Origin: a virus
Direction: 5' to 3' (one strand)
IMG/VR virus record: IMGVR_UViG_3300027849_000009
Length of the DNA stretch: 64,000 nucleotides
The notes under the pieces: model-generated
Database searches by the model: none
The model's input: the letters and a program-made list of their open reading frames with translations, nothing else
What the model was told of the DNA's origin: nothing
Made by a program: the position numbers and the translations under genes
In this document: one piece after another, positions 9,585-27,648 of the stretch
Layout of the letters: the number at the start of each line of letters is the position of its first letter
Position numbering within the stretch: position 1 is the first letter of the stretch

Positions 9585-12500
9585 ATGGCAAATATATTCA
9601 CATCTAATACGTTATCTGGAAGTTATGCAGACGATTATAACGCTAACGACAACTATCATCAGATATTGTTTAACAGCGGTCGCGCTCTTCAGTCACGAGA
9701 ACTTACTCAGATGCAGACTCTTATCTATGAAGAGATGGGTCGCATGGGTAAGAACATCTTTAAAGACGGTGCAGTAGTAAACGGTGGCGGTGTTAGCATG
9801 AACAATGCTTACCACTTCGTTAAGATTGCATCTACTAATCAGGGTGGCGAGTTCGGTGCTATACCAACTGGCACAATCTTAAAGAATCCTAACACTAATG
9901 TTTCTGCTCAGGTTATTCAAGCGATACCTGCTAACGGCACACAGACATTTGATACTTTGTTTGTAGAGTACATCAACAGTGGTAATGCTGATGCAACAAA
10001 TTCACCAATTACATTTGGTGATAATGAAACTTTGGTCGAACAGTTTGCCGCTTCTAGTGCATATGAGTTAGTAACAGAAACTCCTAATGCAACAGGTTAC
10101 GGTGCTAAGTTTACAGTCGCAGAAGGTGACTTCTTTATTCTTGGTCGTTTCGTCAATACAACAGAACAGAGCATTATTCTATCGTCTTACTCAGGCGATA
10201 ATATTAATGCTGAGGTTGGATTCAAAGTCATTCAGGAAGTAATAAGTGTTTCAGACACAGACACACTTTATGACAATGCCTCGGGTATTGTTAATACAGC
10301 ATCTCCTGGTGCTGACAGACTTCGCATCAAACTGGAACTTACTACTAGAGATTTAATTGATTCGAACGATACATTTGTGTTCCTTGCAGAAGTAGAAAAC
10401 TCTGCAATCAGCGAACAACTACAATCAATCGATGCATATAGTAAAATAGAAGAAGTTCTTGCTCTACGTACTAAAGAAGAGTCTGGTGATTATGTTGTTG
10501 AACCATTCATTGTTAATGTAAGTGACAACGATAATGGCACAGATGCTAACTTAGAACTTAATGTAAGTGAAGGCACTGCATATGTAAATGGTTATCGCGT
10601 AGAGAATCAATCACCAGTAACTTTAAATCTTCCTCGTCCAGTAGAAACTGAGACCGTAGAGAATGATGTTATCGGTGTGAACTACGGCAACTACTTTGTA
10701 TGTACTACTAACAGAGGACTTCCTAATCTCGATCATGCAAGAGTTGACTTATGGAGTGCAACAGGTTATGGCGGTAGTGGTACTGATTACGGTACTTGTC
10801 GTATTCGTGCAGTAGAACCATTCGGCACTAAGTTTAAAGTTTATGTATATGACATGAAAGTGTTTGCTACAGAAGACCTTGGTAACGTAAAAAGTATTGG
10901 TTCTTCTACTACTGATTATTTTGATATTGATTTGCAAGGCGGCAAAGCAGTACTAAATGAAACAACTACTAATAATACAGCATTGTTCGACACAGTATTT
11001 CCTCGCATCGAATCTCTTTCTGATGTTACTATATCAAAGCAAGTACGTCAGTCGAAAACTGCATCTAGTAATGCGGTGTCTCTTGATCAGTTACCCGCTG
11101 GACAATCGTATTTAGATTCATCTTTATGGATTGTAGGACTTAGCAGTGCAGTGATTGAAGCACCTAGCACATATACAGTATCAATCACCAACGGTGGTAG
11201 AGATGCTGCCATATCAAGTCTTGCTAGTGCTACTGGCGCATACGAGATTCTTGCTTATGTACAGAAGACTGCAACAATTCGTACAAAGACGCTAACAACT
11301 TCAACAGCAGTTTTGCCTAGTATTACAGATTCTTCTGGTCGTACATTGTTTGATATTGGTGTTCCTGACATCTACTCGGTCGACTCAGTACGACAAAGCA
11401 ACAGTGTTGGTTTTGATCTCACTGGCGCAGTAGTGCTTGACGATGGACAACGTGATAACTATTATGCTGATGGTAGTCTTTTACTCAAAGAAGGCAATAC
11501 AAATCCTACATCAATCTATGTTTCATATAAGCACTTTGTACGAGGCAGTGGTGATTTCTTTGCTCCTTCTTCTTACAATGTTCCTTATAAAGATATTCCT
11601 ATACACACTAATGTATCAGGTGACGTAATTGATCTACGGGATGTTGTTGACTTCAGACCCGATTTAAACAATACAGATAGTGCTGTAACTAATATTAATG
11701 GACTGCCTAGAGTAGGTACTAATATTACTGGTGATATAGAATATTATCTACCTCGTGCAGATAAAGTAATTCTTACGCCCGAAGGCGAACTACAAGTTCT
11801 AATGGGACAGCAAGCGCGTGATCCACAGTTCAAAGAAACGCCTATGCACTCTATGGAACTATACAAGATTGTTCTTAACGGTAATACTATTAACGAAGAT
11901 GATTTGACAATAATTCCAACAGCACAACAACGCGGTTACACGATGAAAGACATCGGTGATATTGATCGTAAGTTAGAAGCACTAGAAGAATCAACAACAT
12001 TAAGTATTGCAGAACTTGAAGCGAGACTTGATAATGTTCTTGATAGTGCTGGTGTTATTCGTATTATCAGTGGTATGCAAGTAGATGAGCATGATGATCA
12101 GGGCAACAGTGAAGTTGAATCGCCTGATTATAAGGCAGCAATTGATCCTGAGAATCGTCTAGTACGTCCTTCGTTTGATGAAGGCAACATGCGTTTAATC
12201 TTTGACTCAGTTGCATCCTCTGGTGTTGTTAAGAAAGGCGATAATGTTTATCTTGCACACACTGAAGCGACTTGGACAAATCAAAGAATAGCATCACGTA
12301 CTGTCAAGATTAATCCATTCGGTCTTATTGACAATGTAGGAACTTTGAAACTGTCACCTACAACTGATGAGTGGAAAGAGTCTATTCAAGATGCCGTTAA
12401 GTCACTCGCAGGTTCTGGAAGATTGTTTGGTAAGCAAGCATACTTGTGGAACAACTGGATGTGGAACTGGCAGGGTCGCACTGAGAAAGAGAATGCTGAC

Positions 12501-14963
12501 ATTGCTAAGTTAGCAGAAAAGGTTCGTAGTGGTTCAGGTAGAACACGAGCATGGGCATTAAGAACATTACATAACAAATATGGACTGTCGCAATCTGCTA
12601 CAATTAAACGTATTGTCTCAGGTGCTACTCTACGCAGTTCTATTGGCAACAAGACTGTCGATATAGCATTTGTACCATGGATTCGCTCACGTAAGATTTA
12701 CTTTAAAGCACAAGGTCTGACTCCTAATACTAAGTTTACTCCTTTCTTTGACGGTACTGATGTTTCGGCATGGTGTCGAGAAGAATCTTCGTTTGTTCAG
12801 TGGTCTGATAGAACAGATGAAATTGGTAACTTGTTCACACACTCACAAGTTCTTGGTCATCCTAACGGCACTAGTGAACTTATTGCTGATGCAAATGGCG
12901 AAGTGATCGGTTCATTCTTCATACCTAACCTTACTCCAAAGTTAGAAGTTGCTCACACTAAGTATCGCGGACGTTTTAACAAATATTATCTACGATTCAG
13001 AGCAGGCGCACGAGAGTTTAAACTTCTCGATATTAAAGTAAATGATTGGGCAAGTGCTAACAGTAAAGCATTCGCACACTATACGGTTAAAGGACTGTTA
13101 CCATGGACTTGGTACAACCCTTTAACTTATACACGTGGTCATAGTTATCTGTATCCTTACAACTATACTCACAAGTTGTATTCTGCAAAGCAAATGAAAA
13201 AGGTTCTTGATAACATACCAGCGAGTCAAGTAAGTATTATTGATCCTAGATTATCTGGTCTATACGGACCCGATGGTGTATCTCTGAATGCGGCAGCACT
13301 ACAGACACTTGCTAATAGTCAAGATATGTCTAAGGTTCTATCTGACTACATCAATGTGAATCATGCGCAGTTTGCTTCTATTCTTGGAGTAAGAGCAATA
13401 GCAACTCCTATGAATCCATTAGCGCAGACCTTTAAAGTCAACAATGAGTTTGGTGTTACACTAACTAAAGTCGAGTTGTTCTTTAAGTCGAAACCTGCTA
13501 ATGTATCTCTGCCAGTCTCTATACATGTTCGCCCTGTCGAGAATGGTAAACCTTCTATGAGTAGTATGGTGCCAGATTCACATGTATATGTCAACAGTGC
13601 AAATGTTAATGTCTCTGCTCTGTCTAGTCAGTTAGTGACTATTCAAGGTAACGGAACGTCATTCGTATTCGATGAACCTATATACTTGGCACCAGGACAA
13701 GATTATGCTATTGTAGTTACATCACAGTCAACCGAATATGAGTTGTTTAGTGCAAGAACTAGAGAGTCTGTTATTAACTCTACTGGTAGATTCAACAGCA
13801 CACAAACACCAGGTTATCTCTTCTTGCCACAGAATGGTAAGAACTGGGAGAAATCACAGAACGAAGACTTAATGTTTAAAGTTACTCGTGCAGTGTTCGG
13901 ATCAGGTGGTGGTGCTAACGGTAGTTTGATACTGAAGAATGCCGCTGTGCCTTCTAAACTGCTTGAAGAGAATCCAATCAGAACCACAAACGGTGATGAG
14001 AAGATTTATGTTCGTCATATCAATCACGGACTACGTCCTGGTGATGGTTGCAACATTGACAGTGCTACTGAAACTGGTGGTTTCTCTGCTACTCAACTAA
14101 GTGGAACTCATCAAGTTATTGATGTTGATATGTATGGTTACAGATTTGAAATCGATCCTTCTAACCCTACTAATGCTACTTCAACAGCAACTGGTGGTGG
14201 TGAAAGAGTATTGTCACAAGGTAACATAAACTTCTCAGTAGTTAATCCAATTATTGAGTCGATTATTCCTAACTATACTTCGATTGATGTATCTGGTAAG
14301 TTTACTTCAGGTCAATCAATCTCTGGTACTGAAACTCGATTCGCACAAGATGCTAAGTTTAATAGAATTACTCCTAAGACTAACACCGATCTTGCTGCCA
14401 CGTACACTCTATACAATCAGTTTGAAGTCGATTCATCAAGAAATAGTGGAATTACTTCATCAACATTGTTTAAAGTTGACATGAAGAGTGCTAACGATTA
14501 TGTCTCACCAATCATTGACTTACAACGATCATCTTTGGTCACTGTAAACAATCTGGTTGATGATCCATCAGTAACTCCTCACATCTTTAGTGTTGCAGAT
14601 TCGGCAGCATCTGGTGCTTCTTCTAGTGCAGTACACATAATGAAACCAGTTGTTCTTGATCAACCTGCTATCGGTATCGAGATTACTGCGGAGTTAACAG
14701 TACCTTCTGCAAGTAATGTTAAAGTATACTTTAGAGTAGGTGCTTCTGATGAGAATCTGAATGACCTTAATTGGACACTTCAACCAGAATATAACACTAT
14801 TGTTAAAGATGGCGTGACTCGTAAAGTTAAGTTTCTTGCTGGTGGTCAGAACGGTACGTTGAAACCATTCAACCAAGCACAAACTAAGATTGTTATTATA
14901 GGAACTAATCCTGCATTCACAGCGAAAGTTGGTGGTGTAGTTGTTAAGTGGTTAGCAAGTTAA
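9585..14963 (+). CDS. Large baseplate/virion protein, VrlC/DUF4815-like
   Basis: 'YADDY...YHQILFNSGRALQSRELTQMQ', 'PGADRLRIKL', 'RTKEESGDYVV', 'YYLPRADKV', 'PLAQTF'. Typical of this family and position in marine T4-like phages. Confidence 0.85.
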   Translation: MANIFTSNTLSGSYADDYNANDNYHQILFNSGRALQSRELTQMQTLIYEEMGRMGKNIFKDGAVVNGGGVSMNNAYHFVKIASTNQGGEFGAIPTGTILKNPNTNVSAQVIQAIPANGTQTFDTLFVEYINSGNADATNSPITFGDNETLVEQFAASSAYELVTETPNATGYGAKFTVAEGDFFILGRFVNTTEQSIILSSYSGDNINAEVGFKVIQEVISVSDTDTLYDNASGIVNTASPGADRLRIKLELTTRDLIDSNDTFVFLAEVENSAISEQLQSIDAYSKIEEVLALRTKEESGDYVVEPFIVNVSDNDNGTDANLELNVSEGTAYVNGYRVENQSPVTLNLPRPVETETVENDVIGVNYGNYFVCTTNRGLPNLDHARVDLWSATGYGGSGTDYGTCRIRAVEPFGTKFKVYVYDMKVFATEDLGNVKSIGSSTTDYFDIDLQGGKAVLNETTTNNTALFDTVFPRIESLSDVTISKQVRQSKTASSNAVSLDQLPAGQSYLDSSLWIVGLSSAVIEAPSTYTVSITNGGRDAAISSLASATGAYEILAYVQKTATIRTKTLTTSTAVLPSITDSSGRTLFDIGVPDIYSVDSVRQSNSVGFDLTGAVVLDDGQRDNYYADGSLLLKEGNTNPTSIYVSYKHFVRGSGDFFAPSSYNVPYKDIPIHTNVSGDVIDLRDVVDFRPDLNNTDSAVTNINGLPRVGTNITGDIEYYLPRADKVILTPEGELQVLMGQQARDPQFKETPMHSMELYKIVLNGNTINEDDLTIIPTAQQRGYTMKDIGDIDRKLEALEESTTLSIAELEARLDNVLDSAGVIRIISGMQVDEHDDQGNSEVESPDYKAAIDPENRLVRPSFDEGNMRLIFDSVASSGVVKKGDNVYLAHTEATWTNQRIASRTVKINPFGLIDNVGTLKLSPTTDEWKESIQDAVKSLAGSGRLFGKQAYLWNNWMWNWQGRTEKENADIAKLAEKVRSGSGRTRAWALRTLHNKYGLSQSATIKRIVSGATLRSSIGNKTVDIAFVPWIRSRKIYFKAQGLTPNTKFTPFFDGTDVSAWCREESSFVQWSDRTDEIGNLFTHSQVLGHPNGTSELIADANGEVIGSFFIPNLTPKLEVAHTKYRGRFNKYYLRFRAGAREFKLLDIKVNDWASANSKAFAHYTVKGLLPWTWYNPLTYTRGHSYLYPYNYTHKLYSAKQMKKVLDNIPASQVSIIDPRLSGLYGPDGVSLNAAALQTLANSQDMSKVLSDYINVNHAQFASILGVRAIATPMNPLAQTFKVNNEFGVTLTKVELFFKSKPANVSLPVSIHVRPVENGKPSMSSMVPDSHVYVNSANVNVSALSSQLVTIQGNGTSFVFDEPIYLAPGQDYAIVVTSQSTEYELFSARTRESVINSTGRFNSTQTPGYLFLPQNGKNWEKSQNEDLMFKVTRAVFGSGGGANGSLILKNAAVPSKLLEENPIRTTNGDEKIYVRHINHGLRPGDGCNIDSATETGGFSATQLSGTHQVIDVDMYGYRFEIDPSNPTNATSTATGGGERVLSQGNINFSVVNPIIESIIPNYTSIDVSGKFTSGQSISGTETRFAQDAKFNRITPKTNTDLAATYTLYNQFEVDSSRNSGITSSTLFKVDMKSANDYVSPIIDLQRSSLVTVNNLVDDPSVTPHIFSVADSAASGASSSAVHIMKPVVLDQPAIGIEITAELTVPSASNVKVYFRVGASDENLNDLNWTLQPEYNTIVKDGVTRKVKFLAGGQNGTLKPFNQAQTKIVIIGTNPAFTAKVGGVVVKWLAS

Positions 14964-15194
14964 ATGACACGCTACGTTAAAGTAGAAGGTGTTCCTGGGT
15001 TAGTTCGAGATATAGAGTCAAATGCGTTAATAAACGTAAATGCTAATGAGATCGAACTTGCCCAGAAACAAAAAAGGATAAGAGAGCAGAGTAAAGCAAA
15101 CTATCATAAATTAGAGGACACAGTAGAAACACTTCAAAAAGATATGTGTGAAATAAAGGAAGCACTCGCAATATTGCTTTCCAGAAGCATATAA
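14964..15194 (+). CDS. Small coiled-coil virion-associated protein
   Basis: 'YVKVEG.PGLVRD..SNALIN' followed by a heptad-rich C-terminus. Abuts the preceding gene. Confidence 0.7.
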   Translation: MTRYVKVEGVPGLVRDIESNALINVNANEIELAQKQKRIREQSKANYHKLEDTVETLQKDMCEIKEALAILLSRSI

Positions 15195-15197
15195 ATA
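15190..15197 (+). promoter_or_regulatory. T4-type late promoter TATAAATA
   Basis: Exact motif upstream of the giant repeat gene. Confidence 0.8.
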
Positions 15198-15229
15198 AAT
15201 GAAACAACTGACTCTAAGATGATAGAAAT

Positions 15230-18200
15230 ATGTCCTTACCGTTAAAACATCTCGGCACTGGTGCCCTTCAAGAACTCGCTACGCTTGATATAGATTATCT
15301 CGCGTATCAAGCGGGTATTCATCTTGGCAAAATGACCAATGGCGATGTCTCTGCTATCACTACAAATGGTAATGGAGCAACTGCTGTAGGTTCGTTTACG
15401 GACACCTACTTTGAATCGTCTGTCGGTTCTACACCAGGAACATCTTGGACAGTAAACTTTACTGTAGAGCATCGATCTAATCCTGGCACTGGTGTACACA
15501 CAGCAATATTCACAGCACAGAACGAGTTGCCATCTCCTCTATATGTTGGCGATACAGTTTATGTTATTGTAAACGGTGATGCAGTAACTGGATTCGAAGA
15601 GATCGGACACGAACTTGCAGTATCTGGTGATGCACTATTTGACAACGAAGGTGTTTCAACAACACCGACTGCTAACTCAGTTGATGGAACCAGAGTAGAG
15701 TGGGAAGACTTCAGCACTGTCGGTGGTCTTTCAGGATCATATCAATCATCATTCGAAATCAAAGTAACTCAAGTAGGTCTTTTAAACTTCACTTTAACTG
15801 CCAACTCTACTGACGTTCAAAACACCACTAAACAAACTGCTAACACTAGTATTGTATTTCCTACAGTTGAAGTCGAAGAGACCTTGCCACCGGAAGCAAC
15901 AGGTGTCCAGACTGATTTGTATCAAGTAACAACAGCATCACAACCTATTAATACTACTAGTGCATTAAAGAAAAATCCATTATACTGGAACAGAGCATTA
16001 ACACCCAACGGTGTTAAGGAGATGAATGACGCTGAACTTGACGCATTTTGCGAAGAGTTAGTCATCCGTATTATGCGGGATGAGTTACCAGGCACATATC
16101 GTCTAAGTGCTAATAGTCCTGGCGTTGATTGGGTACAGTTTGTTCCTAGCGTATTCAACGACACTCGTGGTGATGGAACTGTTATACCTTATTCAATATG
16201 GATAAGACAAGCGGGTATTAAACCTGCTGTAATTAGACCTGTCTATGCCGCACGTAATGCACAACAAGGTTGGGCAGGATTAAGAGAGCATACTGATGCA
16301 GAAGTAGAGTTTACTTTTGGTGAACGTGTAAAGAAAGCAGTTGAAACTACAGGAATTGGTAAATATCAATTACGCTCTGCAACACAAGGTGCACCGACTG
16401 ATACTGGTACATGGGTAGCACGTGGTAGTGCAATCGATACAAGACTTGAATACTATTACGATACTGGTTATCAAGCACTCGAAACATACACATCACAATA
16501 CACAGAAGATTATCTTGGTGAGTACGAAGCAACTTATGCTGGTAACTATGAACCTACGTACACAGGCGAGTTCACAGGCGATTACTTAGGAACTTATGAA
16601 GGCAACTTCGTTGGCAACTATACTCCAACATATGATGGCGATTATCTGGGTGACTACACACAGAATTACATCGGCGATTACAATAAAGAATATACACAGA
16701 ACTATCTTGGTGATTACGTTAATCAATACGTGCCTACTTATGACGGTACTGATTACATTAGTGATTATGAAAACACATATGATGCCGATGCAGTTATTGA
16801 ACAGTATGCTAGTGACTACGAATCTATTGATTACGTTGGCAATTATATTTCTGATTATAGTACAGACTATACTTCTGATTATACCAATACATATCTTTCA
16901 GACTATTCTGGTACAGAGTATATAGGAAACTATGTTTCAGATTATCTCGGTGGATTCCAGACTGAATACCTCGGTAACTACATCTCAAATTATATCGATG
17001 ATGTTTACATAGGCAATTACATCACCGATTACACCAGCGATTATATTAGTAACTATCTTGGATCTTATGATGGTGATTATCTAGGTGATTATGGCGCAAG
17101 TTATGAAGGTGCTTATGATAACTCATACGAAGGAGACTTCCAAGCAACTTACGCTGGAGACTTCACTGCTGATTATCTTGGCACATATCTGACGGATTAC
17201 GATTCGCAATACGAAGGCCAGTTTTCTGAAAACTACGCTGGTGATTACATCAGCGACTATCTTGGAACATATTCTAGTGGATATGAGTCTGATTATGAGA
17301 CAGGTTATCTAACACAATATGAAGGCGCGTATGATGAATCTGCATATGTGGGTAACTTTGTTGCTAGTTATGATAATGCATATGAAGGTGACTTTCAAGC
17401 GACTTACGCTGGAGACTTCACTGCTGATTATATTGGAACATATCTAACAGATTATGATTCACAATATGAAGGTCAGTTCGCAGAGAACTATACTGGAGAT
17501 TATATCAGTGATTATCTCGGAACATACGCTAGTGGATATGAGTCTGATTATACAACTGACTATCTTACACAATACGAAGGTGCGTATGATGAAGTAAATT
17601 ATTTAGGTAACTTTGTTTCTAATTATGATAACTCATACGAAGGAGACTTCCAAGCGACTTACGCTGGTGATTACATCAGTGACTATCTCGGAACATACCT
17701 AAATGATTACGATTCGCAATACGAAGGTCAGTTCTCAGATAACTACGCTGGTGATTACATCAGCGACTACCTTGGAACATACGCTAGTGGATATGTGTCT
17801 AATTACTCCACTGACTATCTTACACAATACGAAGGCGCGTATGATGAATCTGCATATCTAGGCAACTTTGTTGCTGATTATGTGTCTGATTATGAAGGTT
17901 CTTACACCAATCTATATGCTGGTGATTATATCAGCAATTATCTTGGAACATATGCTGGCGAATACGAAAGTGCTTATGCTACAAACTTTGATGCTATTTA
18001 CGTTGGTGGATTTGATACAGATTACATAGCAACTTTTGATGGAGAATACGAGAACACCTATATCGGCAACTATGTTTCAGACTATCTTAATGAGTTTGAG
18101 ACAACATATACCGGCGACTATGGTGGTTTATACACCTCCACTTACGCTGGTAATTATAGCGGCAACTATATTTCAGATTATTCGAATGAGTTTGAAACTG

Positions 18201-21200
18201 AGTATACAGGTGATTATGGTGGACAATATACTTCTACTTACGCTGGTAATTATAGCGGTAACTATATTTCAGATTATACGAATGAGTTTGAATCAACATA
18301 CGTAGGAAATTATAGCGGCGAATATGTTTCTACTTACGCTGGTAATTACGAAGCACAATATTCATCTGATTATGCCAACGAGTTTGAGACCACATACACT
18401 GGTGATTATGGTGGTTTATACACCTCTACTTACTCTGGTAATTATATTACTCAATACTCTTCAGACTATGCCAACGAGTTTGAAACCACATACACTGGTG
18501 ATTATAGTGGTCAATATCAGACTACTTACGCTGGTAATTATATTACTCAATACTCTTCTGAATATCAAGTACCTTATACTGGTGTTTACACAGGCGATTA
18601 CATCTCTGACTATATTGGTGATTACATCTCACCTTATGATGGCACACTGTATACTTCAGATTATATCTCTACTTACCAAAGTGCATATGGCGGTCAATTT
18701 GAATCATTATACACTGGGGTATTTGACGGAACAACATACTCAGGAAACTATGCTAGTCAATACGTAGGCAACTACATTGGTCTATACAACACAAACTACG
18801 CGACAGTATATCAGGGCACTGATTACATATCCACATACGAAGAAACTTACACTGGAAATTATTCTGGACAATATTCTTCTGCTTATGTAAGTGTTTATGA
18901 TGATCAAGCATATGCTACAGCATACGAAGAGACTTATGTTGGAGATTATTCTGGTACATTCGGTGCTACGTTCTTAGGAACTTATGATAGTACAAACTAT
19001 ACTTCAACATACGTAGAGACTTACACCGGAGATTATCTTGGACAGTATGCTTCTGCTTATGTAAGCGTTTATGATGCTCAAGCATATACTGCATCGTTCG
19101 ACACAACCTATTCTGGACAGTATGTAGGATCATTCACAGCATCTTTTGCTGGTGAATATGATAGAACAAACTATACTTCAACATTTGAAACTACGTATGT
19201 TGGTGATTATATTGGTCAATTCAGTCAGAACTTTGCTGCCAGTTTCGACGGAATACCTTATGTAGGATCATTCGAGACAAACTATGTCGGCAACTATATC
19301 GGACAGTTCACAGGTCAGTTCTCAGCATCATTTGCGGGTTCTGATTACACCTCAATATTTACTGCACAGTATACTTCGCAATATACTGGACAGTTTAGTG
19401 CATCTTTCAATGCTTCTTATAATGCAACAACATATGTAGGCGATTATATATCTGGATATGCAACATCATACTCTGGTGCATTCAGTCAAACCTTTATCGG
19501 TGAATATGATAGTCAAGCATACGTAACACAGTTTTCCGCAACGTACACAGGAAACTATGTTGGTCAATATGTCGCAGACTTCTTGGGCAACTATGATAGA
19601 GTAAACTATACTGCCAACTTCACTGCCAACTATACAGGTAATTATACTGGTGCTTTTGGTGCAGACTTTGTAGGAACTTATGATCGCCTGCAATATACAA
19701 ATGAATTTGAAAGTACCTATGCTGGTAATTACATCGGTCTTTTCTCTCAAACATATATCGGTTCTTATCAACGTACCAACTATCTTACACAGTACGAAGG
19801 CATATACACAGGCGATTACAGTGGTGCTTTCAGTGCTACGTTCTTAGGAACTTATGATCGTGCTGCCTATGCAAGAGAGTATGCTAATAGTTATACTGGT
19901 AACTATTCAGGACAGTTCACTGCAAACTATGCTTCCTCTTATGATCGGACTAACTATACTACTCAATTTACTGGTGGTTATACTGGTGGTGTTTCAGAAA
20001 CATTCGGTGCTACGTTCATAGGCGAGTATGATCGTCAAGGTTATATTTCACAATATACCGGACAATATGTGGGTCAGATTGGTGAATCGTTTGGTGCTAA
20101 TTACACAGGCAACTATGATCGAACCAACTATACTTCATCATATACTGGACAATATGTAGGACAGGTTGCTGAAAACGAGAACACGACCAATCAACAATCA
20201 TTTGATCGTGGTCAATATGCCGCTCAGTACACTGGACAATATGTAGGACAGATTGCTGAGAACGAGAATACCACTAATGCTCAGTCGTATGATAGATCAA
20301 ACTACAACACACAATTTACTGGTAACTATACTGGTGGCGTAACAGAGAACATAACTCAGTCACAGAACGAATCGTTCGCAAGAGGTGCTTATGTCTCACA
20401 ATATACGGGACAATATACTGGTGTAGTAGGGCAAAGCACTAACGAAACTTTCACACAGAATTTTAACGAAACTGGTGCCTATCAGATTGAGTATGTGGGA
20501 CAATATACTGGTGTAGTTTCACAGACACAACAGACTGGCGAAAGTCAAGAATTTCAAGTAAACTATACTGGTAATTACACAGGACAATATACTGGTGTAG
20601 TTTCACAGACACAACAGACTGCTGAGAATGAAACTTTCACAGCAGGGTTTGTTGGAGACTATACTGGACAATATACTGGTGCTGTACAGCAAGCAATGAC
20701 TTCTACTTACACTGGAGGTTATACTGGAGTATACTCTGGTAGTTATACTGGTGGTTATACTGGTGTAATTTCACAGACTCAACAGACTGGCATTTCTCAA
20801 GCAATAACACAGTCGCAGAATCAGTCATTTGCTAGAAACTATTCCGGCAACATCTATGCGAGTACGTCTTCGGTTACTCGCGCTTCTCAATCAGCAGATT
20901 CATATAATCTCACAAGCAGGGTGGGTTATTATTCTGGATCATATGGTTCGATGTCGCCTACATATTGGGCAAGCGGTATAAACGAGACTATTATAGGAGT
21001 ATATAAGTTTAATGACTTGTGCATTCCTCCACAAGGTTCATTCGGTGGATCGGGTTCGGATCAGTTTCGAGTCGTCTTCGGATCAGTTCTAACATCAACA
21101 CAGAGAGCGGCGTTTGGTTCGATTTTATTATGGTATACCGGTAGTAGTTCCCTTGCGACTTCGGCAGACAGGGCGGGTCATCGATTATATGCTTCCTCTG

Positions 21201-24200
21201 CCTCTTTTTACTCGTCCGGGGGTCAGTCGTATTTCGCTTGGACTCTGAGTCCTAGTGTAGGTATTTCATCCCCCATCTGGCGAGATAGTATGTCGATAAA
21301 TCCCTGGAATGTTGCTAGGATTCCAAATACAACAACACAGGTGAGTTATAACAACGGTACGTACACAGGACAATACTCTGGACAATATACTGGTGTTTAC
21401 ACTGGTGGATATACTGGTGGATATACCCGAGTTCAACAAACTGCTGTAATCGATAATGTCTCAGAAACAATTCAACAGTCATACACTGGATCATACACCG
21501 GTGGATATGTTCGTTCACAGAACCAAACTGACACAGACACATATACTGGTAACTACACAGGACAATATACTGGTGGTTATACTGGTGGTTATACTCGTGC
21601 GCAGAACGAAACATTCACCGCAGTTTTTGAAGGAACATATACTGGTGTTTACACTGGTGGTTATACTGGTGGTTATACTCGTGCGCAGAATCAAGGGTTC
21701 TCTGTTACATATACAGGATCATACTTAGGCAACTACACTGGACAATACTCTGGTGGTTATACTCGTGCGCAGAACGAAACATTCGGTGCAACATATACTG
21801 GTGACTACATTGGACAATACTCGGGACAATATTCTGGTGTATACACACGAGAGCAAGCAACGAACTATGCATCCGATTATCTAGGAACATTCATCGGTAA
21901 CTATACTGGTCAATACCTTGGATTATATGAACGAGCGCAGAATGAGCAGTTCACTAGAAACTATGATGGAACATATACTGGTGGTTATACTGGACAATAT
22001 GCGGGTCTATATGAACGTGCGCAGAACCAAGCATTCAGTGCCAACTATCTTGCAACATTCGAAGGATCTTTTGGCGCTAGTTACGCGGGACTATATGAAC
22101 GTGCGCAGAATGAGACATTTGCTGCCCAGTATGTCGGAACTTTCGGTGGAGATTATGTATCTCAGTACACTGGTGCTTATGCGCGTGTTCAAGATCAACA
22201 GTTCTCTGCTAACTATCTCGGAACATTCAATGCGAATTATGCTTCTCAGTACGAAGGATCATTTGCAGCGTTCTACAACACACAATATGCTTCTCAGTAC
22301 ATAGGAACATTTGAAGGCGACTATCTGTCACAGTACACTGGTGGATTTACTCAGAACTTTACGGGTCAATTCGGAGTCAACTACGAAGGAACATTTGACG
22401 GCAATTACACTTCACAGTACGAAGGTAATTTTGCACAATCTTTCACTGGTACTTACGCAACACAGTATACAGGAACATTCGACGGTAACTATGTATCGCA
22501 ATACTCGGGCGCATTTACACAAACTTACACAGGTGACTTTGCCGCTACTTATCTAGGAACATTCTTAGGAAACTATGCTAGTGCATATGAAGGCAACTTT
22601 GCTGCCAACTTCGGAGCGCAGTTTAGCGCACAGTATATTGGAACTTTCTCGGGTGATTACTTATCACAATACACCGGTGCGTTCGGAATAACATATTCAG
22701 GTAACTACACTTCAGATTACATCGACACTTACACGTCCGATTATGTTTCGCAGTACACTTCACAGTTCTCTGCTGTATACCAAGGCGACTTCGAAGGAGC
22801 ATATACAGATGATTATCTTGGCGAGTATGCTAGTCAATACGAAGGCAACTTTAGTGCAACATTCACTGGAACTTATAACGTAGATTACATCGACACTTAT
22901 GTTTCACAGTACTTGTCACAATACACTGGTGCATTCCAAGCACAGTTCATAGGAACATACGACTCACAGTATCTAGGAACTTTCATTGGTGACTATGGTT
23001 CGGCATACGAAAGCAACTTTACTGCTACCTTTGATGGAACATATGATTCAGCATATATCGACACTTATGCGGGTGATTATATCTCGGCATACACAGGTGC
23101 TTTCCAAGCAAACTTTGTCGGAACCTACGACACACAGTATCTAGGAACATTTGAAGGCGACTATGTGTCACAGTACACTGGCAACTTTGCCTCGTCATTT
23201 ACAGGCACTTATAACGTAGATTATATTGATACATATGCGGGCGATTATATCTCGGCATACACAGGTACTTTCCAAGCAAACTTTGTTGGAACATATGATG
23301 GTAACTTCACAGGAACTTATGGCACAGAATACACCACTGACTACGAAGGTGCATTCTTAGTTGACTATCTTGGTGATTACATATCTGATTATGTTCCTAC
23401 ATATGAAGGTCAATATACTACTCAGTATGAAGGCGATTATGCGTCTGTCTACGATGGCAATTACAACTCTGCTTACACGTCCACATATGACGGTAACTTT
23501 ACTCAGACATATGCGGGTAACTTTACTGATGTATATACTTCAGACACATATATTGGTGATTACATATCCCAGTATGCTAATAGTTACGCTGGTGGTTATG
23601 TTACTCAATACGAAGGTGACTTCCAGCAGAACTATATCGGTACTTACGGTACTTTATATGAATCACAATACTCTACTGATTTTATTACCAACTATGATTC
23701 AGGTTACGAGGGTGACTTCCAGCAGAACTATATCGGCACTTACGGTACTTTATATGTATCACAATACTCTGATGATTATATATCCGATTACGATTCTGGT
23801 TATGTTGGTGACGATTTAGAGCAATATGATGGCACTTACGCGACTACATATGCTGGCGACTTCATACAGGACTTTATCACCGACTATGATTCTCAATACG
23901 AAGGTGACTTCCAGCAGAACTATGCAGGCACTTACGGAACTGCATATTCTGGAGATTTCGTACAGGACTTTATCACCGACTATGATTCAAGTTATGAAGG
24001 TGACTTTCAGCAGAACTTTGAAGGCACCTACCAGACAGCATATGCTGGAGACTTCACTGCGGACTTTATTGCTCAGTACACAGCATCTTATGATGGCACT
24101 GTCTATGCTGGAACATATGACTCAGACTATCTCAATCAGTATGAATCAGACTTTACTGCACAATATACTGGCGAGTATGATGACATCGATTATGCAGGTA

Positions 24201-25756
24201 ATTATATCAGTGACTTCGAAATTGATTACACGGGTTTCTATACCTCAAATTACACAGGCGATTATCAAAGTAGTTATCTAGCAACATACGCAGGATTCTA
24301 CGAAACCTCATTCACCGCAACGTATGCAAGCGAATATACTTCTAACTATGATGATATCAATTATGCTGGCAACTATGTCAGTAACTATGTTGGTGATTTC
24401 ATTGGTGAATATACTTCAACTTATGAAACTGCTTATGATGATGTCAACTATGCCGGCAACTATATCAACGATTACGTTGGTGACTATAGTGGTGATTATG
24501 TAACAGATTACGCAGGTGATTATCAGAGTAATTATCTAGCAACGTATGCTGGATTCTATGAGACTACATATGCTACAACGTATGCAAGTGAATATGCTTC
24601 TAACTATGATGACCAAGATTATGCTGGTAACTATGCTAGTCTTTACATTGGTGACTTCATTGGACAATACACTTCAACTTATGAGACTGGATATGACGAT
24701 CAAGTTTATGTAGGTAATTATATCAGTGACTATGTTGGCGACTATAGTGGTGATTATGTAACAGATTACGTAGGAGATTATCAAAGTGATTATCTAGCAA
24801 CGTATGCAGGATTCTACGAGACAGAATACCTTACAACGTATGCAAGTGAATACACGTCCAACTACGATGATCAAGATTATGCTGGCAACTATGTTAGTCT
24901 TTACATTGGTGATTTCATTGGACAATACACTTCAACTTATGAAACTGCTTATGATGACATCAACTATGTGGGTAATTATATTAGCGACTATGTTGGTGAC
25001 TATAGCGGTGATTATGTAACAGATTACACTGGAGTTTACGAAGAGCAGAACTACCTTGGCAATTACGTATCAACTTATGATGATATTGAATATGAAGGTA
25101 ACTATGATTCAATCTACACTACAGATTATCTTGTTGACTTTGAGGGTAACTACTTAGGTGATTACAACACAATCTACGAAGGAACTTATGAGTCTTTATA
25201 TTCAGGTGATTTCTTACAAGGATTTGATGGAGTCTATGAGGGTGGTTTCGATTCTACTTACGCAGGTGATTACGGTACTACTTACGCAGGAGACTATGAG
25301 TCAAACTACACACTAACTTATGTTGGTGATTATCTTGGTGACTATACTCCATCGTACTCAACTCTATATGCTGGCAACTACACAGGCACTTATGACGGTT
25401 TAGCAGTAGATGAGTCGTACACTGTTGACTATATCGAGCAAAACTATGACACAGATTACTCAGTAGACTATCAAGAGGATGTCTATCTGGGCAACTATAT
25501 AGATACATTTGACGGCGCAGATGTTGAAGAGACTTATCTTTCCAATTATGACGATGTTGATTATTCTACTGACTATTCTTCTGACTACGATAATGTCGAT
25601 GCAATAGAGAACTATCAAGATGCTGATTACACAGGAACGTACACTCAAGACTATGCGATAGATTATCAAACATCTATATTATACGGTGTTGGCGGCAAGT
25701 TACTTGCTAATCCAGTACAAATTGAAACATACACATTATATGTAAGGGTAGCATAA
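15230..25756 (+). CDS. Giant (3508 aa) Tyr/Gly tetrad-repeat fibre-like protein with mirror-symmetric arms and central globular domain
   Basis: About 420-aa N-terminal domain, two arms of about 1450 aa of (Y/F)-x-(G/S/T)-x tetrads, a central unique domain of about 165 aa, and a short C-terminal strand 'IETYTLYVRVA'. Late promoter upstream. Confidence 0.85.
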   Translation: MSLPLKHLGTGALQELATLDIDYLAYQAGIHLGKMTNGDVSAITTNGNGATAVGSFTDTYFESSVGSTPGTSWTVNFTVEHRSNPGTGVHTAIFTAQNELPSPLYVGDTVYVIVNGDAVTGFEEIGHELAVSGDALFDNEGVSTTPTANSVDGTRVEWEDFSTVGGLSGSYQSSFEIKVTQVGLLNFTLTANSTDVQNTTKQTANTSIVFPTVEVEETLPPEATGVQTDLYQVTTASQPINTTSALKKNPLYWNRALTPNGVKEMNDAELDAFCEELVIRIMRDELPGTYRLSANSPGVDWVQFVPSVFNDTRGDGTVIPYSIWIRQAGIKPAVIRPVYAARNAQQGWAGLREHTDAEVEFTFGERVKKAVETTGIGKYQLRSATQGAPTDTGTWVARGSAIDTRLEYYYDTGYQALETYTSQYTEDYLGEYEATYAGNYEPTYTGEFTGDYLGTYEGNFVGNYTPTYDGDYLGDYTQNYIGDYNKEYTQNYLGDYVNQYVPTYDGTDYISDYENTYDADAVIEQYASDYESIDYVGNYISDYSTDYTSDYTNTYLSDYSGTEYIGNYVSDYLGGFQTEYLGNYISNYIDDVYIGNYITDYTSDYISNYLGSYDGDYLGDYGASYEGAYDNSYEGDFQATYAGDFTADYLGTYLTDYDSQYEGQFSENYAGDYISDYLGTYSSGYESDYETGYLTQYEGAYDESAYVGNFVASYDNAYEGDFQATYAGDFTADYIGTYLTDYDSQYEGQFAENYTGDYISDYLGTYASGYESDYTTDYLTQYEGAYDEVNYLGNFVSNYDNSYEGDFQATYAGDYISDYLGTYLNDYDSQYEGQFSDNYAGDYISDYLGTYASGYVSNYSTDYLTQYEGAYDESAYLGNFVADYVSDYEGSYTNLYAGDYISNYLGTYAGEYESAYATNFDAIYVGGFDTDYIATFDGEYENTYIGNYVSDYLNEFETTYTGDYGGLYTSTYAGNYSGNYISDYSNEFETEYTGDYGGQYTSTYAGNYSGNYISDYTNEFESTYVGNYSGEYVSTYAGNYEAQYSSDYANEFETTYTGDYGGLYTSTYSGNYITQYSSDYANEFETTYTGDYSGQYQTTYAGNYITQYSSEYQVPYTGVYTGDYISDYIGDYISPYDGTLYTSDYISTYQSAYGGQFESLYTGVFDGTTYSGNYASQYVGNYIGLYNTNYATVYQGTDYISTYEETYTGNYSGQYSSAYVSVYDDQAYATAYEETYVGDYSGTFGATFLGTYDSTNYTSTYVETYTGDYLGQYASAYVSVYDAQAYTASFDTTYSGQYVGSFTASFAGEYDRTNYTSTFETTYVGDYIGQFSQNFAASFDGIPYVGSFETNYVGNYIGQFTGQFSASFAGSDYTSIFTAQYTSQYTGQFSASFNASYNATTYVGDYISGYATSYSGAFSQTFIGEYDSQAYVTQFSATYTGNYVGQYVADFLGNYDRVNYTANFTANYTGNYTGAFGADFVGTYDRLQYTNEFESTYAGNYIGLFSQTYIGSYQRTNYLTQYEGIYTGDYSGAFSATFLGTYDRAAYAREYANSYTGNYSGQFTANYASSYDRTNYTTQFTGGYTGGVSETFGATFIGEYDRQGYISQYTGQYVGQIGESFGANYTGNYDRTNYTSSYTGQYVGQVAENENTTNQQSFDRGQYAAQYTGQYVGQIAENENTTNAQSYDRSNYNTQFTGNYTGGVTENITQSQNESFARGAYVSQYTGQYTGVVGQSTNETFTQNFNETGAYQIEYVGQYTGVVSQTQQTGESQEFQVNYTGNYTGQYTGVVSQTQQTAENETFTAGFVGDYTGQYTGAVQQAMTSTYTGGYTGVYSGSYTGGYTGVISQTQQTGISQAITQSQNQSFARNYSGNIYASTSSVTRASQSADSYNLTSRVGYYSGSYGSMSPTYWASGINETIIGVYKFNDLCIPPQGSFGGSGSDQFRVVFGSVLTSTQRAAFGSILLWYTGSSSLATSADRAGHRLYASSASFYSSGGQSYFAWTLSPSVGISSPIWRDSMSINPWNVARIPNTTTQVSYNNGTYTGQYSGQYTGVYTGGYTGGYTRVQQTAVIDNVSETIQQSYTGSYTGGYVRSQNQTDTDTYTGNYTGQYTGGYTGGYTRAQNETFTAVFEGTYTGVYTGGYTGGYTRAQNQGFSVTYTGSYLGNYTGQYSGGYTRAQNETFGATYTGDYIGQYSGQYSGVYTREQATNYASDYLGTFIGNYTGQYLGLYERAQNEQFTRNYDGTYTGGYTGQYAGLYERAQNQAFSANYLATFEGSFGASYAGLYERAQNETFAAQYVGTFGGDYVSQYTGAYARVQDQQFSANYLGTFNANYASQYEGSFAAFYNTQYASQYIGTFEGDYLSQYTGGFTQNFTGQFGVNYEGTFDGNYTSQYEGNFAQSFTGTYATQYTGTFDGNYVSQYSGAFTQTYTGDFAATYLGTFLGNYASAYEGNFAANFGAQFSAQYIGTFSGDYLSQYTGAFGITYSGNYTSDYIDTYTSDYVSQYTSQFSAVYQGDFEGAYTDDYLGEYASQYEGNFSATFTGTYNVDYIDTYVSQYLSQYTGAFQAQFIGTYDSQYLGTFIGDYGSAYESNFTATFDGTYDSAYIDTYAGDYISAYTGAFQANFVGTYDTQYLGTFEGDYVSQYTGNFASSFTGTYNVDYIDTYAGDYISAYTGTFQANFVGTYDGNFTGTYGTEYTTDYEGAFLVDYLGDYISDYVPTYEGQYTTQYEGDYASVYDGNYNSAYTSTYDGNFTQTYAGNFTDVYTSDTYIGDYISQYANSYAGGYVTQYEGDFQQNYIGTYGTLYESQYSTDFITNYDSGYEGDFQQNYIGTYGTLYVSQYSDDYISDYDSGYVGDDLEQYDGTYATTYAGDFIQDFITDYDSQYEGDFQQNYAGTYGTAYSGDFVQDFITDYDSSYEGDFQQNFEGTYQTAYAGDFTADFIAQYTASYDGTVYAGTYDSDYLNQYESDFTAQYTGEYDDIDYAGNYISDFEIDYTGFYTSNYTGDYQSSYLATYAGFYETSFTATYASEYTSNYDDINYAGNYVSNYVGDFIGEYTSTYETAYDDVNYAGNYINDYVGDYSGDYVTDYAGDYQSNYLATYAGFYETTYATTYASEYASNYDDQDYAGNYASLYIGDFIGQYTSTYETGYDDQVYVGNYISDYVGDYSGDYVTDYVGDYQSDYLATYAGFYETEYLTTYASEYTSNYDDQDYAGNYVSLYIGDFIGQYTSTYETAYDDINYVGNYISDYVGDYSGDYVTDYTGVYEEQNYLGNYVSTYDDIEYEGNYDSIYTTDYLVDFEGNYLGDYNTIYEGTYESLYSGDFLQGFDGVYEGGFDSTYAGDYGTTYAGDYESNYTLTYVGDYLGDYTPSYSTLYAGNYTGTYDGLAVDESYTVDYIEQNYDTDYSVDYQEDVYLGNYIDTFDGADVEETYLSNYDDVDYSTDYSSDYDNVDAIENYQDADYTGTYTQDYAIDYQTSILYGVGGKLLANPVQIETYTLYVRVA
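17126..17890 (+). repeat. 3 x 255-bp tandem repeat (85 aa, 21 aromatic tetrads), N-arm of giant protein
   Basis: Units start at 17126, 17381 and 17636 (YEGDFQATYAGD...). Confidence 0.9.
18095..18574 (+). repeat. 5 x 96-bp tandem repeat (32 aa, 8 tetrads), N-arm
   Basis: The Phe codons of 'NEF' fall at 18095, 18191, 18287, 18383 and 18479. Confidence 0.9.
23609..24088 (+). repeat. 5 x 96-bp tandem repeat (32 aa, 8 tetrads), C-arm
   Basis: Units (YEGDFQQN...) start at 23609, 23705, 23801, 23897 and 23993. Confidence 0.9.
24263..25036 (+). repeat. 3 x 258-bp tandem repeat (86 aa, 21 aromatic tetrads), C-arm
   Basis: Units (YQSxYLATYAGFYET...) start at 24263, 24521 and 24779. Confidence 0.9.
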
Positions 25757-26229
25757 TGACAGTGGAATTTTTAGACAATGGATTTTGGGAAAACGAAGAA
25801 AAGACAATACTTAAATGTATTCGCTTAACTCCTATTAAGGAGGGTGGTAGAAAGAAAGATGTTCTTGAACTACGTAAGATATTGCCGGACGGTTCTGAAT
25901 GTCCTCAGTTCAAGCAGTGTATTGCACAGCATGGTTTGGAAAAGATCGATGCTAATACACAGGTTCGTAAGGATACTAAAGAGAAAGAGGATCGCGAGAA
26001 ACGTGCTATACATGAGCAACGTAAAAAATCTCACGAACTTGAACAACTCTTTAATGCCAAACTACAAGCATTCGAAATAGATACGATCAAGAACTCAACA
26101 AATCGCGAGTTGCGTTCCAGACTACGTAGAGCAAAGAATGTTATTGAGATGAATGCATTGGCAGCATTAGTGATTGGAAGTGAACTTGGTTATTTTAAAA
26201 AGGTAGATGAAGATGAGCGAACCGACTAA
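25756..26229 (+). CDS. Hypothetical protein, possible fibre assembly chaperone
   Basis: Coupled to the giant gene by TAATG. Basic and helical. Function is inferred from position only. Confidence 0.6.
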   Translation: MTVEFLDNGFWENEEKTILKCIRLTPIKEGGRKKDVLELRKILPDGSECPQFKQCIAQHGLEKIDANTQVRKDTKEKEDREKRAIHEQRKKSHELEQLFNAKLQAFEIDTIKNSTNRELRSRLRRAKNVIEMNALAALVIGSELGYFKKVDEDERTD

Positions 26230-26971
26230 AGGTTATGTTATTGTAGCATCACGAAAGAAGTTTTTTTATGTCTCTGCCATTAACTTGATGGAGTCAATCA
26301 AAGATTATTATCCTGAAGCACAGATTACATTTGTAGTAGAAGAAAAGTTTCTTGACGGACAAGAAAGAATCGCAGACAATGTTATATTTTGCGATGATCA
26401 TGCAAGAGCAAAACTGATTGGTATGGCAAAGTCGCCGTATGATATTACGTTTTATGTTGATGCTGATATAGAATGCGAACACGAAGACATTGCAACTATC
26501 TTTGATAAACTAGATGGACATGATTTGATGTTTACTGGTTTACCTGCTGATAGACATTACTGCTATGCAGAAGTGTTCTTCGAAGGCGCAAGAAAACCAG
26601 ATGGCACTAAAGCAGGATTTGAATTGTGTGGTGGTGTTTGTTTGTATGATATGCGTAATCCTTTAGTTCGTTCATTCATGCAAGATTGGTATGACTTGAC
26701 TGTTGCACAATATGGTAAAGTGTGGTGGCCAACATTAGAAGATGGAGTCACCGAAGACTTAGAAAATTATCCTGCAACTCTGAAGAGATGGGATCAATTC
26801 TCATTGTGGTGGTTAGTCAACAAAGAACCTAAGTACAAAGATTTGAAAGTTGGTATACTAGAAGACGATGCTCGGTGGAACTTTTATTCCAAATATAAAT
26901 ATGAGCATAACAAGGATCCTGTCGTATTGAGACACTATTCTTCTTCTGGAGCAAAGCAACTGGATTTCTAA
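26207..26971 (+). CDS. GT-A fold glycosyltransferase (nucleotide-diphospho-sugar transferase / GT8-like)
   Basis: 'KGYVIVAS...AINLMESIK', 'AKLIGMAKSPYDITFYVDAD' (DxD motif), 'CGGVCLY', 'WDQFSLW', 'RWN...VLRHY'. The true start may be the second ATG at 26213. Confidence 0.8.
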   Translation: MKMSEPTKGYVIVASRKKFFYVSAINLMESIKDYYPEAQITFVVEEKFLDGQERIADNVIFCDDHARAKLIGMAKSPYDITFYVDADIECEHEDIATIFDKLDGHDLMFTGLPADRHYCYAEVFFEGARKPDGTKAGFELCGGVCLYDMRNPLVRSFMQDWYDLTVAQYGKVWWPTLEDGVTEDLENYPATLKRWDQFSLWWLVNKEPKYKDLKVGILEDDARWNFYSKYKYEHNKDPVVLRHYSSSGAKQLDF

Positions 26972-26973
26972 AT

Positions 26974-27648
26974 ATGATGAAAAATATACCACTGAATGAT
27001 TATGCGATCAATCTTTTAAATGAAGCACTATGGTTTACTAAGCAAGAGAACTATAGTGCTGTTATTCCTTCTAAGATAAATGACTTAGATAAAGCAGATT
27101 GGTTCACTGGTCAAGAATACTTTGAACAGATTAAGGGAGAGGGCAGAGGACACGATGGGTTCCCTGCTTTTGTTACTAGTTATTCATTCAATCAAGATTA
27201 TAGATTTGATCCTCATAATCCACACATTGATCGAAAGATAGCAGAAGTTGCGGATCATCATGGCAAGTTGATGACTAACATACAGACAGCATTCAATCTT
27301 AAAAAGAATGCACTGTTCTCTGTATATCCGCCTGGTGGTTATATCTCATGGCACAACAACGCAAATGCTTCGGCATATAATTTTATATTCACATACAGTG
27401 AAACAGGCGATGGTTGGTGGAAGCATTGGGATCCAGTCAATCAGAAGATGATTCACATTCCTGACGTTAAAGGGTGGCAGTGTAAAGCAGGACACTTCGG
27501 TGCATACGAAGATGGATCTGATAAACTAGTATATCATACAGCACGTAATGGTGAAAGCGGGATACGTATGACAATTGCGTTCGTATTAGATCGATCAGAG
27601 ATGTCTTTAGGTCTACAAGATTGGGTTATTGAAGATATACACGCTTAA
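26974..27648 (+). CDS. 2OG-Fe(II) oxygenase-like protein
   Basis: 'YPPGGYISWHNN...VYHTA...RMTIAF', the double-stranded beta-helix oxygenase pattern (H-x-N...H, distal R). Confidence 0.7.
   Translation: MMKNIPLNDYAINLLNEALWFTKQENYSAVIPSKINDLDKADWFTGQEYFEQIKGEGRGHDGFPAFVTSYSFNQDYRFDPHNPHIDRKIAEVADHHGKLMTNIQTAFNLKKNALFSVYPPGGYISWHNNANASAYNFIFTYSETGDGWWKHWDPVNQKMIHIPDVKGWQCKAGHFGAYEDGSDKLVYHTARNGESGIRMTIAFVLDRSEMSLGLQDWVIEDIHA

Follow-up and report, generated by a model that had tools for sequence, protein, structure and literature searches.

This analysis concerns a giant gene in the IMG/VR virus record IMGVR_UViG_3300027849_000009, of which a stretch of 64,000 nucleotides (hereafter the window) was analysed. 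The gene is a single open reading frame on the plus strand (15230-25756) within a T4-like baseplate and tail module, and its product, referred to here as the fibre protein, has 3,508 amino acids (aa; P0001). Tyrosine or phenylalanine recurs in this protein 596 times with an exact spacing of four residues and 46 times with one of five. Cutting the protein at each aromatic residue divides it into five parts, all given here with their positions on the plus strand. An N-terminal globular domain (aa 1-407; 15230-16450), which is conserved in 331 protein clusters and is probably the end attached to the virion, is followed by an N-arm (aa 408-1865; 16451-20824), a central tip domain of 177 aa that is the sole non-repetitive internal segment (aa 1866-2042; 20825-21355), a C-arm (aa 2043-3484; 21356-25681), and a short closure segment (25682-25753) ending in ETYTLYVRVA, a motif that hardly varies among the 54 complete members of the family. 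Both arms follow the same four-residue consensus (tetrad), [Y/F]-x-[G/S/T/A]-[D/N/T/Q], in which the third position is glycine in 45%, serine in 21%, threonine in 11% and alanine in 10% of the cases. The N-arm amounts to 355 tetrad-equivalents with 38 extra residues in five-residue steps, and the C-arm to 355 tetrad-equivalents with 20 extra residues; the five-residue steps in the arms have the form Y-D-[R/G/D]-x-[N/D/A].

Both arms contain tandem arrays of these tetrads, which we located with Tandem Repeats Finder (TRF) and read in the translated units. The longest units form an array with a period of 255 bp in the N-arm (17113-17882, 3.0 copies, 82% match) and one with a period of 258 bp in the C-arm (24249-25038, 3.1 copies, 82% match). 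These correspond to three units of 85 aa at 17114-17878 (the first-pass annotation had given 17126-17890, another phase of the same array) and three units of 86 aa at 24263-25036, each of 21 tetrads. The 85-aa unit consists of 21 aromatic-anchored units including one five-residue step (YDESA or YDEVN), and the 86-aa unit of 21 units including two such steps (YDDIN/YDDQD and YDDVN/YDDQV), so that the difference of one residue does come from one versus two bulges, as had been proposed. Shorter units of 32 aa (8 tetrads each) form arrays with a period of 96 bp at 18059-18566 in the N-arm (about 5 copies) and at 23609-24069 in the C-arm (about 4.8 copies), corresponding to five units at 18083-18562 and five at 23609-24088. 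Both of these pairs, 3 x 21 and 5 x 8 tetrads on each arm, had been claimed in the first-pass annotation and are real. A third mirrored pair, absent from that annotation, has two copies of 14 tetrads on each arm: 2 x 58 aa at 18833-19184 (period 174, 2.0 copies) and its partner, 2.2 x 56 aa at 22921-23295 (period 168). The paired arrays are alike in their TRF match, with 82% and 82% for the 21-tetrad pair and 76% and 77% for the 14-tetrad pair.

With the base of each arm as the origin and the tetrad-equivalent as the unit of length, the 21-tetrad block lies at 53-116 in the N-arm and 52-115 in the C-arm, the 8-tetrad block at 133-173 and 129-169, and the 14-tetrad block at 195-223 and 198-226, respectively. 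The claim that the blocks mirror each other in position is borne out to this extent, partners lying within 4 tetrads of each other. A DNA palindrome as the source of this mirror was considered and rejected: a blastn comparison of one arm with the other found no opposite-strand similarity (E >= 2.4), which locates the mirror in the protein rather than in the DNA.

Alleles of the gene were collected by searching IMG/VR and JGI metagenome contigs with the N-terminal domain, the tip domain and the inner arms. Four distinct full-length alleles were obtained, namely that of the window, L023, L022 and L025; their copy numbers are given below in the order 21, 8 and 14 tetrads for the N-arm and 14, 8 and 21 tetrads for the C-arm. 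The window allele (3,508 aa) has 3, 5, 2 copies on the N-arm and 2, 5, 3 on the C-arm, with arm totals of 355 and 355 tetrad-equivalents, and L023 (3,509 aa, 86% identical to the window allele) has the same copy numbers and the same totals (355/355). L022 (2,926 aa, 92% identical to the window allele) has 1, 3, 1 and 1, 3, 1 copies with totals of 283/283, and L025 (2,814 aa, 77% identical) has 1, 1, 1 and 1, 1, 1 copies with totals of 267/267. Among the remaining contigs, L006 is the same as L023, L009 is 99.9% identical to L023, and L008 is the same as L025. Two partial contigs from other samples (L005 and L007) have an N-arm like that of L023, which is also found in L009, and the N-arm of L020 has the copy numbers of the L022 type, including the single 21-tetrad copy.

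In global alignments to the window protein, L022 shows indels of -170, -32, -32 and -58 aa along the N-arm and of -56, -32, -32 and -172 aa along the C-arm, and L025 shows indels of -170, -128 and -58 aa along the N-arm and of -56, -128 and -172 aa along the C-arm. In both alleles, the order of indels along the C-arm is the mirror of that along the N-arm, and all arm indels are paired. Across the four full-length alleles, the 21-tetrad block is found as 3|3 or 1|1, the 8-tetrad block as 5|5, 3|3 or 1|1, and the 14-tetrad block as 2|2 or 1|1 (N|C); any change in the length of an arm has a partner at the mirror position with an equal tetrad count, and no change confined to a single arm was found among the full-length alleles of this gene. 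The covariation between N- and C-arm copy numbers that the first-pass annotation had led one to expect is thus present in all four, and about six matched events can be counted per arm across the three blocks.

The order of units inside the blocks provides a finer view of this matching. The 32-aa units were typed by DNA identity, which is 76-97% within a type versus 52-77% between types. The 8-tetrad block reads AABCC on the N-arm and XXYWZ on the C-arm in the window, AAABC and XYWWZ in L023, and ABC and XYZ in L022, and has one copy per arm in L025. In all cases, mirror pairing places A opposite Z or W, B opposite Y, and C opposite X. The window allele and L023 have both reached the 5|5 state via different duplications, and the duplicated unit on the one arm is each time the unit facing that on the other. 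Because the facing 8-tetrad unit is duplicated in each five-copy allele, compensation is local and does not merely restore total length. The expectation that trees of the repeat units should mirror each other holds cleanly for the 8-tetrad block; it does not do so for the 21-tetrad block, where, on the N-arm, the third unit of the window (WIN_3) is closest to the second unit of L023 (L023_2, 92.5%) and the second unit of the window (WIN_2) to the third unit of L023 (L023_3, 87%). This pattern suggests unit shuffling or gene conversion within the 85-aa array (17114-17878). As a separate observation, the full-length alleles show only odd copy numbers of the 8-tetrad unit (1, 3 and 5); judging by the unit types, an intermediate of the form AABC / XYWZ would have existed, and none was observed.

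Further signs of register between the arms come from comparisons in which the C-arm is reversed and set against the N-arm. When the identity between alleles is calculated in 80-aa bins, the profiles of the two arms mirror each other (L023: r = 0.88, p = 2e-6; L025: r = 0.91, p = 1e-5), and local dips in the profiles are mirrored as well; the corresponding correlation for L022 is not significant (r = 0.46). The mutual information between the residue classes of the N tetrads and those of the mirrored C tetrads, calculated over 49 shifts, has its maximum at a shift of -1 in the window, L022 and L025 (z = 2.8-3.4). The peak is sharp, covering shifts of -2 to 0, and is strongest in L025, which is the allele without large arrays. 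A residue-level pairing rule, if this is its trace, appears just as this weak peak. In the inner arms, YDRxN pentads on the N side and 'Y[ET]RA-QNEx' units on the C side both recur every 7 tetrads, and the phase offset between these irregularities remains constant over at least 6 periods. This superperiod extends over 19900-20800 on the N side (29 aa, with the YDRxN pentad) and 21400-22300 on the C side (28 aa, YxRAQNEx). Near the tip, aromatic-free runs rich in Q, T, N and E, 1-5 tetrads long, also occur every 7 tetrads on both arms.

The tip domain (20825-21355) is the most divergent part of the protein, with identities of 56% to L023 and 40% to L025 versus 86% and 77% overall, and divergence declines on both sides away from the centre of the protein. 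Most of the small indels between alleles are located in this domain. Neither Pfam nor PHROGs contains a match to it, and a tblastn search with it yielded nothing among 50,697 phage records. Judging from its position and variability, it is a candidate for the receptor-binding end of the fibre, and its rapid divergence fits such an end under diversifying selection.

Structure prediction was carried out with AlphaFold. For residues 1560-2360 of the window protein, using the four alleles, the model has all-beta arms and a predicted local distance difference test (pLDDT) score of 41.8, which is too weak for use. More confident results were obtained for a relative of 494 aa (P0070), for which 90 sequences were available. 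In this model, the N-terminal domain has a pLDDT of 95-98 and the C-terminal strand 463-492 one of 93-98; the model contains just two long strands, E234-261 at the base of the N-arm and E463-492, and the latter holds at least five consecutive tetrads (YVGD FLGN YLGN YVGD ...) in one continuous strand of 30 residues. The end of the chain is thus predicted to return to its start and to pair with it. Structural matches cover residues 37 to 494 of the model as one compact beta-prism-like domain. The best fold matches of the N-terminal domain are 8b6v_A (Z 7.5, root-mean-square deviation 3.7 Å, 121 residues aligned), 2qp2_A (Z 7.0) and 3tow_A (Z 6.2), to be compared with MABP / perforin-2 P2-type beta-prism domains; note that Z scores of up to 7.5 are middling according to the tool and in the range of a common arrangement. 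A Foldseek search with the P0070 model yielded no PDB match at E <= 0.001.

Taking these observations together, we consider it very probable that the protein is a fibre of a T4-like myovirus in which one strand runs outward, a tip is formed in mid-sequence, and the chain returns antiparallel and in register with its outward half, the length of the fibre changing in matched steps. In the proposed mechanism, the chain would leave the N-terminal attachment domain as an extended beta strand of [Y/F]-x-[G/S/T/A]-[D/N/T/Q] tetrads, turn at the variable tip domain, and come back as a return strand antiparallel to the outward one and in register with it, so that the last 20-30 residues (…ETYTLYVRVA) would dock beside the N-terminal domain. 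Positions 1 and 3 of a tetrad would lie on the same face of an extended strand, and a large aromatic residue would therefore alternate with a small one along that face. If the antiparallel strands are offset by two residues, each aromatic residue would be placed over a small residue of the partner; this packing is inferred, as is the physical zipping of the arms. By analogy with the needle of T4 gp37, a homotrimer with six strands, the fibre is probably trimeric, and the tip domain would be its receptor-binding end. Each outward tetrad would then have a facing partner. If one arm alone were expanded or shortened by a tandem duplication or deletion, part of the chain would loop out unpaired and the periodic five-residue bulges would fall out of phase. 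Variants changed in one arm would persist only after the facing segment has gained or lost an equal number of tetrads; a matching duplication on the opposite side would restore the zipper. Since facing segments would have to change together, the length of the fibre would evolve in matched steps. If the strands are fully extended, the window fibre is estimated to be about 0.4 µm long (430-480 nm, from 355 x 4 residues at 3.0-3.4 Å per residue) and that of the shortest allele about 320-360 nm; the estimate under a solenoid model (see below) is about 25 nm.

The comparison of alleles supports expansions that are compensated under selection. The first-pass annotation had left the choice between strong selection and a coupled mechanism; nothing points to a coupled mutational mechanism. 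Because no such mechanism is evident, selection on separate events is the simplest cause of the matched arms.

A related pair of proteins in a sister subfamily, L031 and L030 (starting at positions 7097 and 7595 of their own contigs), indicates how strict this compensation might be. The two are 95% identical and differ by one indel per arm, both of which begin at a distance of 24-25 tetrads from the base. These indels are unequal in size, 166 aa (40 tetrads) versus 189 aa (47 tetrads), and the arm totals (N/C) are 231/229 in L031 and 191/183 in L030. Since the sizes differ, compensation is strongly favoured but not absolute. L030 may be an intermediate that awaits compensation, and an imbalance of this type is as expected if changes come one arm at a time.

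Several points weigh against the zipped-ribbon interpretation. The L030/L031 pair is unbalanced by 7-8 tetrads, and in the window the offsets of the blocks between the arms range from -3 to +4 tetrads with the landmarks used here. The order of the 21-tetrad units on the N-arm differs between the window and L023, and the C-arm does not show the mirrored swap. The alleles are few and related, so that the matched events number about six and not dozens, and every allele comes from short-read metagenome assembly. As to the structure, the low-confidence AlphaFold model of the window protein shows the 28-residue repeats of the C-arm as three short strands each, which is solenoid-like rather than a continuous ribbon, and the arms in the P0070 model have a pLDDT below 50. 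The strand pairing in the model is read from strand lengths and confidence values, not from contacts.

The solenoid-like drawing of the C-arm repeats leads to an alternative in which the arms do pair, but as compact beta-solenoids with about 7-8 tetrads per coil that are stacked antiparallel, the fibre being tens and not hundreds of nm long. The inner-arm superperiod of 28-29 residues fits such coils, as do the sizes of the 14- and 21-tetrad blocks, which are multiples of 7, and the three short strands per 28-residue C-arm repeat in the AlphaFold model. However, the 8-tetrad units do not fit a multiple of 7, the solenoid-like model has a pLDDT of only about 50, and the high-confidence part of P0070 has at least five tetrads in one continuous strand of 30 residues. 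The P0070 model thus gives mild support to an extended ribbon over a solenoid, and we regard the solenoid as unlikely.

It is also conceivable that only total length matters, for example, if the arms form separate rods, or a loop that is anchored to the virion at both ends, which would require equal span without any tetrad-by-tetrad pairing. Equal arm totals are what this explanation predicts, and it accommodates both the mismatch of 7-8 tetrads tolerated in L030/L031 and the 21-tetrad unit order that is not mirrored between the window and L023. It does not account for the finding that every indel in one arm has a counterpart of equal unit size at the mirror position in the other, nor for the fact that in the 8-tetrad block it is the facing unit that is duplicated. 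The sharpness of the mutual-information peak at shifts of -2 to 0, the mirrored dips in local divergence and the phase-locked 7-tetrad irregularities likewise argue for pairing along the arms, and equal span as the sole constraint seems quite unlikely to us.

Since all alleles come from metagenome assemblies, and the L025 state rests on possibly one sample (L008 being the same as L025), one may ask whether the short alleles are artefacts in which tandem repeats were collapsed by short-read assemblers and the matches are accidental. The repeat copies differ by 12-35% at the DNA level, which is too far apart for assemblers to merge them, and a collapse would need to strike three arrays per arm equally. 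Moreover, L022 and L020, two different alleles whose samples also differ, share the three-copy N state of the 8-tetrad block, AAABC with its five copies occurs in four samples, and the mirrored differences in unit order are impossible to make by collapse, all of which makes an assembly artefact very improbable. Equally improbable is a coupled mutational mechanism that makes both duplications in one event: the paired arrays are alike in internal divergence (82/82% and 76/77%), which implies that partner duplications were close in time, but units of the N-arm have no sequence in common with those of the C-arm, nor are the arms similar in inverted orientation, so that gene conversion or template switching between them would be without a substrate, the sites are 5-7 kb apart, and the unbalanced L030/L031 pair is as expected for stepwise change followed by selection.

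The fibre protein belongs to a large family. A profile of the N-terminal domain built from the window protein and P0002 matches 331 protein clusters at E <= 1e-3, of which 132 remain at E <= 1e-30; the N-terminal domain of the window protein is 45% identical to P0002, and the identity of the window protein to Phage C48C1 is 35.5%. The 54 complete members have lengths of 422-4,046 aa, and each of them closes with ETYTLYVR[VI][AS], a motif to which the end of the window protein, PVQIETYTLYVRVA, conforms. In these members, the N-terminal domain and the C-terminal motif are conserved, the middles are wholly different, and the layout of arm, irregular middle and arm recurs. Balanced arm counts were found in further members, including L010 (187/187), P0057 (85/85) and P0078 (81/81). 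According to an automated tip finder, 52% of the 54 proteins have their most irregular segment between 0.45 and 0.55 of the tetrad count, where about 10% would be expected for a segment placed anywhere; note that the finder does not cope with multi-domain members (P0002 and C48C1, for example), and that its first version, which took the longest irregular stretch, failed on L010. Phage C48C1 (L001; gene at 14677-24720) and P0002 are distant members with several extra globular domains along the arms, and a simple arm count is not symmetric in either of them. C48C1 also uses other flavours of tetrad, for example, Y-[ST]-R-x / F-x-G-N repeats.

Searches of existing resources detected few relatives. 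Phage C48C1, in which the protein is annotated as hypothetical, is the sole carrier of the family among the 50,697 phage records (tblastn with the N-terminal domain and P0070), and a megablast search of the fibre gene against the same records found no match. Neither Pfam nor PHROGs gave a match for the whole protein or its N-terminal domain, the PDB sequence search gave none at E <= 1, and a word-indexed protein search returned one relative, P0002. A literature search found no paper describing this fibre family and no solved structure.

The genes that surround the fibre gene include gp6-like and other baseplate wedge proteins, a giant DUF4815 protein, tail sheath, portal, major head protein and large terminase, and they assign it to the baseplate and fibre module of a T4-like myovirus. 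The same gene order, with gp6-like and DUF4815 baseplate genes, then the fibre gene, then three small genes, is found in the window, L002 and C48C1. The three small genes (157, 254 and 224 aa; 25756-27648, plus strand) always follow the fibre gene; they have syntenic homologues in L001 (Phage C48C1), L002, L010, L017 and L031 and weaker matches in L033. They have no Pfam match at E < 0.05 and no PHROG match, and are candidate assembly or modification factors. Giant structural genes lie on both flanks of the fibre gene: that at 9585-14963 encodes the DUF4815 protein (1,792 aa, phrog_358), and that at 29209-34152 encodes a protein of 1,647 aa with a weak pectate-lyase-like match.

In a broader sense, and with somewhat better than even confidence, we propose that these proteins constitute a class of fibre that has not been described before, in which a beta ribbon of aromatic tetrads folds back on itself. 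The ribbon would be hundreds of nm long with about 1,450 residues per strand in register, and its length would evolve by compensatory duplications and deletions in facing positions in the manner of covariation in an RNA stem; the family, which occurs in uncultured marine T4-like phages, has members of 422 to more than 4,000 residues. If the arms do zip, a protein structure can be read from matched indels across alleles, as is done for RNA, and the alleles are a rare natural record of a long repetitive fibre changing its length while its fold is kept. Marine T4-like phages could then tune their reach stepwise, by an estimated 10, 18 and 27 nm or so per 8-, 14- and 21-tetrad unit, and the tip could diverge separately. 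The motif itself, which has an aromatic residue at one position in four and a small residue between successive aromatics, could serve as a template for length-programmable protein rods, and the family comprises hundreds of clusters that are without annotation.

Among known systems, the nearest design is the needle of the T4 long tail fibre protein gp37, to which there is no detectable homology; the crystal structure of the gp37 tip was reportedly determined by Bartual and co-workers in 2010. The collar domain D10 of gp37 is formed by residues 811-881 together with residues 1010-1026, the chain going to the tip and returning, and in the needle stem glycine packs on an aromatic residue of the neighbouring strand, as G921 does with F970 (PMC6957217). 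Like the window protein, gp37 (D10-D11) is thus a T4-type phage fibre with an out-and-back chain, the return being predicted in our case. The differences are considerable. The gp37 needle has about 50 residues per strand, whereas the arms of the window protein have about 1,440-1,460 residues each and are some 30 times longer. The needle is held by His-x-His iron sites, whereas the window protein has 7 histidines in 3,508 residues and no HxH pattern in its arms. In addition, the window protein has a strict aromatic tetrad repeat and a proposed fold-back over nearly its whole length, whereas gp37 folds back at the tip only. As for homology to the gp37, gp12 and gp10 collar, there was no PDB sequence match at E <= 1, no Pfam match, no Foldseek match at E <= 0.001, and no collar among the VIA matches.

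Fold-back chains with matched halves also occur outside phages. In the streptococcal antigen I/II adhesins (SpaP and SspB), the stalk is said to fold back such that A-region repeats on the N side pair with P-region repeats on the C side (reportedly described by Larson and co-workers in 2010), and these proteins are said to have matched repeat copy numbers and an adhesive tip domain, as is proposed for the window fibre. They reportedly pair an alpha helix with a polyproline helix, on the bacterial surface and with three repeats, whereas the window fibre would pair beta with beta over hundreds of tetrads. In SMC, Rad50 and MukB, the N and C halves fold back into antiparallel coiled-coil arms of matched lengths with a domain at the turn. 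These arms are alpha-helical heptad coiled coils of chromosome proteins, and their length is strongly conserved, whereas that of the window fibre appears to be tuned between close alleles. A parallel in evolutionary terms is offered by RNA stems, in which, as proposed for the window fibre, a change on one side is tolerated only with a change in the facing partner, and for which the evidence of pairing is comparative as well; RNA stems compensate by base substitution, whereas the window fibre would do so by indels of 8-42 tetrads.

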